Assembly (NCBI GenBank): GCA_035873375.1
Contig: JAYWMQ010000052.1
Location: 44,331 to 108,330 of the forward strand
Length of the DNA stretch: 64,000 nt
Reading direction: 5' to 3'
Source: Nitrospirota bacterium
GTDB lineage: Bacteria > Nitrospirota > Thermodesulfovibrionia > Thermodesulfovibrionales > JdFR-85
Of this stretch, positions 21,131 through 60,496 are shown piece by piece. A model generated the notes under the pieces. That model did not search any database and was not told the DNA's origin. It worked only from the letters and a program-made list of their open reading frames with translations. The position numbers were made by a program, and so were the translations under genes. Position 1 is the stretch's first letter; every line of letters starts with the position of its first letter.

Positions 21131-21183
21131 TATCAAAAATCTCCTGTACACTTGAAATAACTTGCCACAACTGTAAAGATTAT

Positions 21184-21278
21184 TCAGCCGCAGATTTTCG
21201 CAGATAAACGCAGATTATCAAGACTTTAGAGAAATTTTGCTTTACTATCTGCGTGAATCTGCTAAAATCTGCGGCTGA
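21184..21278. repeat. ~90-bp palindromic intergenic element, GCAGAT family, copy 1
   Basis: tcagccgcagattttcgcagataaacgcagat (21184..21215) faces atctgcgtgaatctgctaaaatctgcggctga (21247..21278). About 93% identical to the copy at 23128..23215. Confidence 0.85.
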
Positions 21279-21291
21279 AATCCGTTGACAC

Positions 21292-22308
21292 TCAGAACAG
21301 CCGGTTGGGAACATTTATCTTCAGGTGTTCATAAGCGCCGCGTGTGGCAAGCCTGCCCCTTGGTGTCCGTTCTATAAACCCCTCCTGAAGGAGAAAGGGT
21401 TCATAAACATCCTCAATCGTCTCCTTATCCTCCCTCACAGAGGCTGCAAGGGTGTCCACACCTACGGGGCCGCCGGCATATTTTTCAATAATTGTAAGCA
21501 GGAGCTTCCTGTCCATATCGTCAAGCCCCCTGTCATCCACATCCATGGCCTCAAGGGCGTACCGGGCTATCTCTATCCCGATCGTACCGTCACCCTTCAC
21601 CTGGGCAAAATCCCTCACCCTCCTCAGGAGCCTGTTTGCAATCCTCGGTGTACCTCTTGAACGGCGGGCAACCTCAAAGGCGGCATCTTCGGTTATATGG
21701 ACATCAAGGATGGTTGAGGAACGTTTGACCACCCTTATAAGCTCTTCAGGCCTGTAGTATTCGAGCCTCACAATCACACCAAAACGGTCCCTGAGGGGAA
21801 ATGTCAGCAGCCCTGTGCGGGTGGTGGCACCAACGAGTGTGAAGTGCGGCAGGTTTACCTTGAGTGAACGGGCATTTGGGCCCTGTCCAATAATAATATC
21901 AAGGTGAAAATCCTCCATGGCAGGATACAGGACCTCTTCGACGATCCTGGGCATCCGGTGTATCTCGTCAATAAAGAGGATATCCTGATCCGAGAGGTTT
22001 GTAAGTATTGCGGCAAGGTCTCCCTGCCTCTCGAGCACCGGACCTGATGTGGTCTTCAGGCTTACGCCAAGCTCATTGGAGATAATATGTGCAAGCGTGG
22101 TCTTTCCAAGCCCTGGCGGGCCGTAGAAGAGAACATGGTCAAGTGCCTCTCCACGGTGTCTTGCCGCCTGAATATAAACATGGAGGTTATCCTTTAACCG
22201 CTCCTGCCCTATAAACTCTTCAAAACTCCTGGGCCTCAGGGTTACATCCAGGAGCAGATCATCCTGAGATACCTCTGGCTCAACCCCACTTTCATCCGTC
22301 TCTTTCAG
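21292..22308 (-). CDS. ruvB: Holliday junction branch migration helicase RuvB (start extended beyond the ORF-track call)
   Basis: Track ORF 21292..22038 begins mid-protein ([10 protein letters not shown]...). The frame stays open upstream and encodes [18 protein letters not shown]...[26 protein letters not shown] (Walker A). There is no in-frame ATG, GTG or TTG before the stop at 22333..22335. A CTG at 22306..22308 lies 5 nt after GGGAGG (22314..22319). Confidence 0.85.
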
Positions 22309-22325
22309 ACTAACCTCCCGCTTTT

Positions 22326-22429
22326 TTATTAACTATTGACTATTAACTATTTGCGATTGAATATTGAATTTTGAATATTAAACAGATAAGAATTAAACAG
22401 AATTGTTTAATTCGTCAATCGTCAATCGC
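22326..22429. repeat. GTCAAT/ATTGAC-word spacer between ruvB and ruvA
   Basis: ttaactattgactattaactatttgcgattgaatattgaa ... ttaattcgtcaatcgtcaatcgc, with an internal near-duplicate (atattaaacagat / gaattaaacagaat). Confidence 0.7.
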
Positions 22430-22431
22430 TC

Positions 22432-22998
22432 TCACCTGTTCAAATATTTTAACGACTCTTTAAGGAGATTCTCAATCTCCCTGATTCCCTTCTGATAGGC
22501 CCGCTCCAGGGCCTCCTGGGCATGGGCTCTTTTATATCCGAGGTTAACCAGCGCTGAAAGGGTATCCTCGTAAACCCTCTCTTTTTTCTCTCCTGTCTTC
22601 GGAAGCTTTTCCCTGAGCTCGAGTATAATCCTCTGTGCTGTCTTCTTCCCCACACCGGGAATCCTTGTCAATAACCCAACATCCTCTGTCTCTACTGCCC
22701 TTAAAAAATCCTCGACCGTTGAGCCGGACAGGATATTCAGTGCAAGCCTTGGTCCCACCCCTGAAATGCCGAGCAGGGATTTAAAAACCCTCTTGCCGTT
22801 CTCATCCAGAAAACCGTAGAGGTCTATGGCATCATCCTTCACATTTGTATAAATAAAGAGAAAGACCTCCCTGCCCTCCTCCGGCAGCTCTGAAAGCACA
22901 CTCAGGGGGACACTCACCTCATAGCCAACTCCGCCTGTCTCAACCACTATGCACTCAGGCCGTTTTAGAGTGAGCCTGCCTCTCAAAGTCCCTATCAT
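22432..22998 (-). CDS. ruvA: Holliday junction DNA-binding protein RuvA
   Basis: 188 aa. MIGTLRGRLTLKRPECIVVETGGVGYEV is a classic RuvA N-terminus, with HhH motifs (GVGPRLALNIL, IPGVGKKTAQRI). SD is AGGAGGG. Confidence 0.95.
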   Translation of the reverse strand: MIGTLRGRLTLKRPECIVVETGGVGYEVSVPLSVLSELPEEGREVFLFIYTNVKDDAIDLYGFLDENGKRVFKSLLGISGVGPRLALNILSGSTVEDFLRAVETEDVGLLTRIPGVGKKTAQRIILELREKLPKTGEKKERVYEDTLSALVNLGYKRAHAQEALERAYQKGIREIENLLKESLKYLNR

Positions 22999-23127
22999 CT
23001 CAGGGGTTGCCCTCCTTTTTTAAAAAAACCGGATATGTTTCATCGATAATTCAGGTGTATTATACAATAAAGAAAGGTTTTTACAGAAAGGACAGCGGGG
23101 GATTAAAAGAAATCAAGAGTAAATTTG

Positions 23128-23215
23128 GCCGCAGATTTTGCAGATAAACGCAGATTGTCAAGACTTTAGAAAAATTCTGCTTTAATATCTGCGTGAATCT
23201 GCGAAAATCTGCGGC
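23128..23215. repeat. ~90-bp palindromic intergenic element, GCAGAT family, copy 2
   Basis: gccgcagattttgcagataaacgcagattgtcaagactttagaaaaattctgctttaatatctgcgtgaatctgcgaaaatctgcggc. Same orientation as copy 1. Confidence 0.85.
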
Positions 23216-57534: not shown

Positions 57535-57918
57535 TCACAAATCACTCACCTCTATAACCACAGATGCAATACTGCACCCCCTGTCATGACTGAGACTGAG
57601 ATGAATCCTTCCATTACGAAACAGTTCGGCAAACAGTACACCGGCATTACCATAAAGCCTGATCTCAGGCTGACCCGAGCCTCTGTTTATCACACCTATC
57701 TCTTTAAGAGGAATGGGCACACTGGATTTCAGTGCCTTTATAAATGCCTCTTTTGCTGCAAAACGGGCTGCATAGGAATTATAGGGGTTTGCCTTTCCTG
57801 AACAGTAAGTAATCTCCTCAGGCGTAAAAACCCGTTCAACAAACCTCTCTCCCCATCTCCTGATAGCCTGCTCAAGCCTCTGCACATCCACTATATCAAT
57901 GCCTGTTCCGTGTATCAT
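57535..57918 (-). CDS. acpS: holo-[acyl-carrier-protein] synthase
   Basis: 127 aa. MIHGTGIDIVDVQRL N-terminus, with FAAKEAFIKAL and a SLSHD-type motif. Confidence 0.93.
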   Translation of the reverse strand: MIHGTGIDIVDVQRLEQAIRRWGERFVERVFTPEEITYCSGKANPYNSYAARFAAKEAFIKALKSSVPIPLKEIGVINRGSGQPEIRLYGNAGVLFAELFRNGRIHLSLSHDRGCSIASVVIEVSDL

Positions 57919-57929
57919 TTGATTATTGA

Positions 57930-58643
57930 CTACTGTCGATCCACAATCGCCTTCATCTCCCTTACAGCCCTCTCCATCCCAACAAGGACTGCCCTTGATA
58001 TAATGCTGTGCCCTATATAAAGTCCCCTGAGACCTTCAATGGATGCAACCGGCCTGATGTTGTAATATGTAAGGCCGTGCCCTGCATTTGCATAAAGACC
58101 ATTAAGCCGTGCCCTCTCGATTGAAGCTATTACCTTCTTCAACTCTTCACGCTGCTCCTCACCCCTCGAGTTTGCATAATGCCCTGTATGGACCTCAACC
58201 ATGGCAGCCCCTATCTCCTTTGCAACATCCACATCAACTATGGAAGGGGCTATGAAAAAACTCACGGGGATATCTTCTTTTCCTAAACGTTGAACAGCAT
58301 CACGAAGCTTATTCCCCGGTACATGCAGGTCAAGACCTCCCTCGGTTGTCAGTTCCTCGCGTTTTTCAGGCACGATAGTGACAAGGTCAGGTTTGATCTG
58401 TATCGCAGTCTCTATCATCTCATCTGTGGCAGCCATCTCAAGGTTCAACTCCACAGGCACCATATCCCTGAGCAGCCTCAGATCCCTGTCCTGAATATGC
58501 CTGCGGTCCTCCCTGAGGTGAACGGTTATTCCATCAGCTCCACCCAGTATGGCAAGTGTGGCAGCCATAACAGGGTCCGGCTCAAAGGTCCTGCGGGCCT
58601 GTCTCAATGTAGCAATATGGTCAACATTAACTCCAAGAATCAT
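57930..58643 (-). CDS. pdxJ: pyridoxine 5'-phosphate synthase
   Basis: [16 protein letters not shown] signature. The track start at 58667 is TTG. The ATG at 58643 follows GGAGG by 8 nt and matches the usual PdxJ N-terminus. Confidence 0.93.
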
Positions 58644-58671: not shown

Positions 58672-60396
58672 CTACTCCCTCAATCTCATGAGCGTACCGG
58701 CTTTCCGGGCACCATACCTGAAGACCGTTACCCCCTTGCATCCCTTCTCATATGCCAGCAGAAAAGCCTTCTCCACATCCACCCTCTTTGCGCTCTTTGG
58801 AAGATTAACCGTCTTTGAGACCGCATTATCAGTATACTCCTGAAAGGCTGCCTGCATCTCTATATGGTCTTTCGGCGGGATCTCGTGCGCGGTCTTAAAC
58901 AGCCTCTTTATCTTAGCCGGCACCTCCTTTATTCCCCTCAGCCTGCCCTTCATCAGCACCTTCTTCTCAAGCTCCCGAGAATAGAAACCGAGCTTCCCGG
59001 CAAGAGCAAAAAAGTACTTGTTGACTTCTATCAACTCTGTATCGAGGATGAGCCTCCTGTAGGCAAGGGCAAAGATGGGTTCTATACCGCCTGAGCAGTC
59101 TGCAATTATGGAGATAGTGCCTGTGGGTGCAATTGTTGTGGTCGTTGCATTCCTCACCTTTGGCATATCAGGGGCATCATAAATCGACCCCTTAAAGTTA
59201 GGGAAAACACCCCGCTTCCCTGCAAGCTCAGCCGAAGCCTCCTTTGACCTTGTCTGTATAAATCTCATCACCTCTCTGGCAAGCCTGAAGCCCTGCTCTG
59301 AATTATACTGGATACCAAGGAGTATGAGCATGTCCGCCCAGCCCATCACTCCAAGACCTATCTTCCTGTTACCCTTGTGCATCCTTTCAATCTCGGGCAG
59401 TGGATACCTGTTAGTATCGATGCAGTCGTCAAGAAACCTGACAGCAACCCTTATATCCTCTCCTAGACTTTCATAATCAATGACAGGGGTACCTTCAGGG
59501 TTATCAACTATTGAATTACGCACATATTTTGAGAGGTTCATTGAGCCGAGCACACAGGCCTCATATGGCAGAAGCGGCTGCTCACCGCAAGGGTTGGTAC
59601 TCTCTATCTCACCAAGGTGGGGGGTGGGATTGAATCTATTTATCCGGTCTATAAAGACAAGCCCCGGATCCCCTGTCTCATGGGCACTCCTGACAATAGC
59701 ATCAAAGACCTTACGGGCACGGAGCCTGCCAACCGGCCTGCCTGTTCTTGGATTAACAAGTTCATACTCCGTGTCTTTTTTGAGCGCCGCCATAAAGGCA
59801 TCGGTAACGGCCACGGATATATTGAAATTAGTCAGTTCCCCCTGGCTCCTCTTGGCCTCTATAAAATCGAGTATGTCAGGGTGATCAATCCTCAAGATAC
59901 CCATATTGGCGCCCCTCCTGGCACCACCCTGTTTTATCACCTCAGTGGCGGTGTTATATATCTTCATGAAGGAGACCGGGCCGCTGGCAATCCCTCCGGT
60001 AGTCCTGACGATATCAGACCTGGGCCTGAGTCTGGAGAAGGAGAAACCTGTTCCACCCCCGCTTTGAAGGATGAGGGCAGTGTTTTTCAGTGTATCAAAG
60101 ATACTCTTCATCGAGTCATCAACCGGTAGGACAAAACAGGCAGCAAGCTGTCCAATCTCCTTACCGGCATTCATCAGAGTCGGTGAGTTTGGCAGGAATT
60201 TTAGATCACTCATCAAGGTGAAGAACCTCTCTTCCCAAGCCCGGGGCTCCTCTCCGTAAAAATCTTCTGCACGTGCTACATGGGAGGCAACACGGCGGAA
60301 CATTCCTTCCGGCGACTCTATGATCTCTCCCTTTTCGTTCTTAAGCAGATATCGGGCCCGCAGCACACGGAGCGCATTCTCGGTAAGGTTAAGCAT
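58672..60396 (-). CDS. nrdJ: adenosylcobalamin-dependent (class II) ribonucleotide reductase
   Basis: 574 aa. N-terminus [34 protein letters not shown], with the [14 protein letters not shown] active-site loop and the TIAPTGTIS motif. Confidence 0.92.
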
Positions 60397-60496
60397 GGGA
60401 TAAATTATAGCAGAAAAAGGAGAAAAACTTAAGTTTAAGCCGCGGATCGAATTGCACCGAAAAACAGAGCTGAATCTGTGGCTAAATTAAAAATCC

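Follow-up and report, generated by a model that had tools for sequence, protein, structure and literature searches.

Introduction

CTG is a rare start codon of NCBI translation table 11, seldom annotated in model genomes, and most of the annotated CTG starts are isolated and unverified. The infC gene of E. coli, which encodes IF3, begins with AUU and is autoregulated through the discrimination that IF3 exerts against non-canonical starts. In S. aureus, conserved near-cognate starts have been described for ccpN (AUA), cvfC1 (AUU) and infC (AUA), together with strong or extended Shine-Dalgarno sequences; they were verified by retapamulin ribosome profiling and by reporters, in which they gave about 10-30% of the AUG level, and the ccpN AUA was found to depend on the growth medium (PMC13009471). 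When CUG itself was put into E. coli reporters, it reached about 1-2% of the AUG level (bioRxiv 10.1101/063800). Switches from AUG to CUG are among the rarest start-codon changes, with 2 of them among 61,358 reconstructed starts (PMC5622118).

We report here the analysis of a ruvB gene carried on a 64,000 nt stretch of DNA from an uncultured Nitrospirota bacterium (the whole stretch is called the window below). Judging from the comparison of related loci, this gene almost certainly starts at the rare codon CTG, a feature common to all its close relatives. Among verified cases, the locus comes nearest to those of S. aureus, in that a conserved non-canonical start is combined with a strong Shine-Dalgarno sequence at the proper spacing, a pairing which in S. 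aureus is read as holding translation low. It differs from them in that the codon is CUG, rather than AUA or AUU, in that the product is a DNA-repair ATPase, and in being known here from sequence comparison alone. As for E. coli infC, the near-cognate start appears to be retained by selection, and initiation is expected to depend on IF3 proofreading; the codon is different, however, and there is no reason to suppose that RuvB exerts a feedback on its own initiation. With other annotated CTG starts, ruvB has in common the codon and the presumed first-position mismatch with fMet-tRNA, but its CTG is fixed clade-wide.

Results

The ruvB frame of the window

The ruvB gene of the window is preceded directly, on the same strand, by its partner ruvA (22432..22998, minus strand, 188 aa, ATG start, Pfam domains RuvA_N, HHH_5 and RuvA_C), and the ruvA-ruvB order is common to all relatives. 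In the mechanical list of open reading frames, the sole product given for ruvB is 248 aa long and starts at GTG 22038 (22036..22038, minus strand). According to the original prediction, this GTG is the first canonical start of the frame and lies inside the conserved VLERQGDL segment, 90 conserved N-terminal codons including Walker A precede it, and no ATG, GTG or TTG is found upstream of it before the in-frame TAG (22333..22335, minus strand) that closes the frame. A codon walk confirmed these three points together with their coordinates. After TAG 22335..22333, the frame reads, on the minus strand, TTA ATA AAA AAG CGG GAG GTT AGT CTG AAA GAG ACG, and remains open without any ATG, GTG or TTG down to GTG 22038, a position 98 codons past the TAG and 90 codons past the CTG. 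This GTG is therefore codon 91 when counted from the CTG; it falls within the AAA+ domain, downstream of Walker A, and is very unlikely to be the real start. The Walker A motif, or P-loop (GPPGLGKT, 22099..22122, minus strand), corresponds to codons 63-70, and is part of the product only if initiation takes place upstream of GTG 22038.

When translation is begun at the candidate CTG (22306..22308, minus strand), the predicted coding sequence covers 21292..22308 on the minus strand, with a frame of 338 codons and a TGA stop at 21294..21292. Pfam domains span residues 24-330 of this protein and come in the order expected for RuvB: the P-loop domain (RuvB_N, PF05496, residues 24-182, E = 1.7e-80), the AAA lid (AAA_lid_4, PF17864, residues 185-258, E = 9.8e-32) and the C-terminal winged helix (RuvB_C, PF05491, residues 260-330, E = 5e-27). 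Eighteen PDB sequences matched the product at E <= 1e-50, the best one being 9dx3_A (E = 9.6e-133, residues 19-334). E. coli RuvB (PDB 9dx3/7pbl) and Thermus thermophilus RuvB (1hqc) are matched over their full length, with E values of 1e-133 to 1e-116. The three domains, the Walker A motif and the upstream ruvA are thus as in canonical ruvB genes, and the start codon is the sole difference. We conclude that 21292..22308 (minus strand) is probably (probability about 0.85) an intact and functional gene for the Holliday-junction branch-migration ATPase, which would be translated, throughout the clade, from the near-cognate CUG at 22308..22306.

Start of ruvB in deposited annotations

It had been anticipated that automated annotation would truncate this gene or call it a pseudogene. 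This proved true for part of the models only. The CTG start is already captured by NCBI annotation, which places it there in four assemblies: the protein of the window, MEC4686261.1 (338 aa), is identical to the CTG-start translation, with Met as first residue, and those of three relatives, HEB76838.1, NOZ26321.1 and HEC98316.1 (partial), are annotated from the homologous CTG. Other models of the same 90% cluster are 317 and 326 aa long and start at downstream GTGs, and one JGI model of a relative, of 349 aa, is over-extended from an upstream TTG. The 248-aa truncated form was absent from the protein collection.

Conservation of the CTG codon among relatives

The DNA of the cluster members and of near relatives was collected, and each locus was anchored on GPPGLGKT. 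Nine lineages were obtained in this way: the window, L179, L084, L083, L164, L181, L081 (with L167-170), L082 and L171/172. By their annotation, the ruvB homologues belong to metagenome-assembled genomes of Nitrospirota or Nitrospirae, and hydrothermal-vent samples are the source of several of these. A CTG was present at the homologous codon in 9/9 lineages, which share ancestry and are not fully independent observations, and it was followed in each by AAA and then GAG, GAT or GAA; at the protein level, the Lys-Glu after codon 1 is conserved. This CTG is carried on more than 15 contigs, drawn from NCBI, ENA, JGI and Logan and stemming from different projects and samples. Within the clade, ruvB identity is 79-93% for nucleotides and 86-98% for amino acids, and third-position identity drops to about 0.5 between subgroups. 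Leucine is found in every lineage at 38 columns of the alignment, only 3 of which, the start among them, keep a single codon; apart from the start, 2 of the 37 Leu-conserved columns are codon-invariant (about 5%), a statistic that is modest when taken alone. Upstream of the CTG, the in-frame peptides are unrelated from one lineage to the next, which indicates that protein conservation begins at the CTG codon.

In the window, L084 and L083, none of the codons that separate the CTG from codon 91 is a canonical start, and for the window this makes initiation at the CTG the compelling reading. In L084, as in the window, canonical starts are lacking from the upstream stop onward. A GTG is found at codon 13, 21 or 22 in 6 of the 9 lineages, where it could yield a somewhat shorter and probably still working protein. 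Two lineages contain in-frame TTGs on the other side of the CTG, none of them with a Shine-Dalgarno sequence. In L082 there are two, 6 and 11 codons ahead of the CTG; in L083 there is one, 8 codons ahead, placed right after the stop and before the Shine-Dalgarno sequence of the CTG. In L082 and L083, therefore, an upstream TTG might conceivably act as a canonical start.

Shine-Dalgarno sequence and start context

A Shine-Dalgarno sequence, GGGAGG (22314..22319, minus strand), precedes the CTG of the window by exactly 5 nt (TTAGT). Its GGAGG core is kept in all nine lineages, with 4-9 nt between it and the CTG; in seven of them the gap is exactly 5 nt. For comparison, a GGAGG placed 4-9 nt before a canonical start was found for 14 of the 45 ORFs of the window, the commonest gap being 6 nt, so that the ruvB site fits the strong ribosome-binding sites that this genome uses elsewhere. 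Among the 2720 CTG triplets of the window, 27 (a chance level of 1%) have a GGAGG 3-10 nt upstream. With the gene screen and the survey of other ruvB loci given below, this sets the ruvB site apart from a mere coincidence. No Shine-Dalgarno sequence was found before GTG 22038.

For the genes of the window we also determined the gap that separates the first canonical start from the stop ahead of it. It was long in two genes other than ruvB, those for a ribonucleotide reductase (58672..60486) and for an ACP synthase (57535..58035), and in both cases the Pfam domains start after the first canonical start. Among real genes, ruvB is the only one whose gap needs to be explained. The idea of a genome-wide use of odd start codons was dropped, as no further real gene of the window requires one.

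Competing start sites and translation of the first 90 codons

A first alternative is that ruvB starts at another near-cognate codon, either ATA 22329..22327 or an in-frame CTG at codon 18, 20 or 24. They make up the rest of the near-cognate codons ahead of the conserved LRPR motif, and the CTG of codon 18 has an AGGA 4 nt before it. The ATA had been ranked as the poorer candidate from the outset, and we agree: it comes before the Shine-Dalgarno sequence and is not itself preceded by one, and the stretch to which it belongs is not conserved among relatives. As to codons 18, 20 and 24, they become CTT, CTC or TTA in relatives, and of the leucine codons before the LRPR motif codon 1 alone is invariant. 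The conserved Lys-Glu that follows codon 1 in the protein also speaks against any of these alternatives, and we consider them improbable. The CTG at 22306..22308, which the original prediction had designated as the best candidate, is on the contrary backed by its conservation in the nine lineages and by the ATG found at its place in outgroups (see below).

The second alternative is that ruvB is a pseudogene, or that its only product is the 248-aa form starting at GTG 22038, devoid of Walker A, as the mechanical ORF call would have it. The pattern of substitutions in the first 90 codons tells otherwise. Between the window and L084, codons 2-90 differ by 0, 2 and 18 nucleotides at positions 1, 2 and 3, respectively, corresponding to 16 synonymous and 4 non-synonymous codon changes. 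With L081, the differences are 5, 3 and 51, for 41 synonymous and 12 non-synonymous changes. Such a third-position bias upstream of 22038 indicates that the region is translated and that the N-terminal 90 codons are under purifying selection. Moreover, the 338-codon frame is unbroken in every lineage with a complete gene, and GTG 22038 lacks a Shine-Dalgarno sequence. ATPase activity of AAA+ proteins requires the P-loop, and a RuvB without it would not be an ATPase. The substitution pattern leaves practically no room for a pseudogene or for a product starting at GTG 22038.

Recoding was also envisaged, in two forms. Initiation could occur at an out-of-frame ATG (22295..22293) and be followed by a frameshift, given that a short way past the CTG an alternative frame contains an ATG, a GTG and a TTG; or ruvB could be reached by read-through of the ruvA stop (22434..22432), which in the window is in frame with ruvB. 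L082 lacks the out-of-frame ATG (it has GAC GAC there), the ORF that this ATG opens ends after 17 codons, and GGGAGG is 18 nt away from the ATG. Read-through would have to cross several in-frame stops between ruvA and the CTG. More generally, the spacers, of 123, 51, 245, 165, 130, 47 and 30 nt, have lengths that are only in part divisible by three. Both forms of recoding are thus very hard to reconcile with the relatives, and we give them hardly any credit. A related scheme, reinitiation after a short upstream ORF whose TGA stop would overlap the CTG (cTGA), was rejected, as this frame has no start between the upstream TAA and the TGA in the window; ruvA itself ends 123 nt from the ruvB CTG.

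A last alternative is a sequencing or assembly error that hides an ATG, GTG or TTG; a sequencing error is among the things that the original prediction had named as able to refute it. The window comes from a metagenome-assembled genome, any single assembly may contain a wrong base, and replacing the C by A, G or T would suffice to give a canonical start. Such an error is an extremely remote eventuality now that the same CTG is read in independent assemblies, from at least nine lineages and more than 15 contigs, at 7-20% nucleotide difference from the ruvB of the window.

Probable origin of the CTG codon

Whether relatives have CTG or ATG at this place was the comparison first proposed as a check, and both were found, CTG in the 9/9 lineages of the clade and ATG in the outgroups. 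In a neighbour-joining tree, the CTG sequences are monophyletic, with L171 basal, and their sister group, which has ATG, is made of P0002 and P0021. All six outgroups read (L173, L175, L177, L001, L002 and L087) have an ATG. It is placed 59-62 codons before GPPG in 5 of the 6, the distance being 62 for the CTG of the window, and in the remaining one, L173, it is displaced 5 codons upstream, at 67 codons before GPPG. The correspondence is clear with L087, whose ATG AAA GAA GAG GAC (MKEED) stands against CTG AAA GAG ACG GAT (LKETD) in the window. As a background sample, 164 further ruvB loci were taken, of which 2 running off the contig end were left out; in 162/162 of these sampled complete loci outside the clade, the conserved region is preceded by a canonical start.

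Monophyly of the CTG sequences, together with the ATG of the outgroups, suggests that ATG gave way to CTG a single time, in the ancestor of the clade. The CUG start would then have arisen once, probably from AUG, at the base of this hydrothermal Nitrospirota clade, and would have been kept since.

The gene that follows ruvB is not the same in all members of the clade. It encodes a peptidase (M1/PDZ, roughly 1000 aa) in the window and the other relatives, and a CbiA-family protein in the basal L171/L172 (WGEZ01000007.1). The CTG start has therefore outlived a local rearrangement of gene order.

The ruvA-ruvB spacer and flanking repeats

The spacer between ruvA and ruvB (22309..22431, minus strand) is 123 nt long, has 28% G+C and contains degenerate 7-nt tandem repeats. 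In relatives its length varies from 30 to 245 nt and its G+C content from 25% to 64%, and, save for GGAGG, the spacers cannot be aligned. We considered an RNA element in the spacer as an explanation for the unusual start. This was ruled out by the Rfam search, which returned nothing relevant for the spacer, and by the predicted fold, which was not significant (z = -0.79).

Read on the plus strand, the heptanucleotide repeats of the window consist of about 7.6 copies of a degenerate TATTGAC and 2.4 copies of TCGTCAA (22327..22379 and 22412..22428). At the same place, the L164 spacer (165 nt before the CTG) contains 11 perfect tandem copies of ATTGACT. The repeated unit includes TTGAC, which resembles a -35 box. 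These heptamers could be just slippage-prone DNA, or could have an effect on ruvB transcription. The spacer of L083 contains, about 90-180 nt before the CTG, a G+C-rich inverted-repeat insert (cccctctttgccaaagaggggg ... ccctccctttggcaaagggagg) which is absent from the window, a further sign that small repeat elements come and go between these two genes.

On a larger scale, the ruvA-ruvB pair of the window is bracketed by two copies of an imperfect palindrome of roughly 97 nt (21183..21279 and 23128..23215), one just past the ruvB stop and the other between the upstream peptidase gene and ruvA. The palindrome is built of GCAGAT units with a 10-nt spacing. Its motif CGCAGATNNNNGCAGAT has 8 matches in the window, 7 of which are at the two palindromes, against 0.05 expected. 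As RNA, the palindrome is predicted to fold with -50.8 kcal/mol (z = -8.98), and a search of Rfam with it gave sub-threshold matches to generic hairpins and nothing more. The motif also flanks ruvAB in L084, L164-166 and L181, and had no exact match in the other loci fetched. It may act as a terminator in both directions, or be one of the small palindromic elements that occur repeatedly.

Between the 23128..23215 palindrome and ruvA, some 60 nt before the ATG of the latter (22998), the sequence TGTATAAT (23059..23066, minus strand) is similar to an extended -10 box and makes a plausible candidate for the ruvAB promoter. It was not listed by a scan with the promoter consensus, which found no -35 match for it.

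Discussion

The initiation event that we propose is the following. GGGAGG, a strong Shine-Dalgarno sequence separated from the CUG by 5 nt, would bring the 30S subunit into position. Initiator fMet-tRNA would then read this CUG with a first-position mismatch, giving a protein whose N-terminus is Met-Lys-Glu-Thr-Asp. In the bacteria tested, initiation at CUG reaches only a few percent of that at AUG, so that RuvB output is likely to be low, a handicap that the strong ribosome-binding site and the A-rich second codon would offset in part. Actual initiation at the CUG, the use of fMet-tRNA and the low expression are all what we infer from the aligned sequences.

RuvB is needed as hexamers, so that a start codon of very low strength would offer it no obvious advantage. 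One may speculate that CUG is a selected regulatory device, retained ever since the clade arose, which would make RuvB synthesis depend on how strictly start codons are proofread, as set by the IF3 level, temperature or growth state, much like the autoregulated AUU of infC or the medium-dependent AUA of S. aureus ccpN. We hold this to be doubtful; were it true, RuvB would be made in bursts, and only under particular conditions. The variable heptamer repeats of the ruvA-ruvB spacer might in that case form a second layer of control.

The ruvB CUG would be a new, well-conserved example of a known phenomenon, the combination of a near-cognate start with a strong Shine-Dalgarno sequence, and it leaves our knowledge of RuvB and of initiation unchanged. 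On the practical side, the locus makes a benchmark for gene callers, given the models of 248, 317, 326 and 349 aa that stand against the NCBI start at CTG. CUG appears to have become the fixed start of a core gene of recombination repair, throughout a clade in which synonymous sites are close to saturation, and the Shine-Dalgarno sequence was retained while its surroundings turned over. This would place ruvB of these Nitrospirota among the cleaner comparative cases for CUG as a stable, selected start codon in bacteria.
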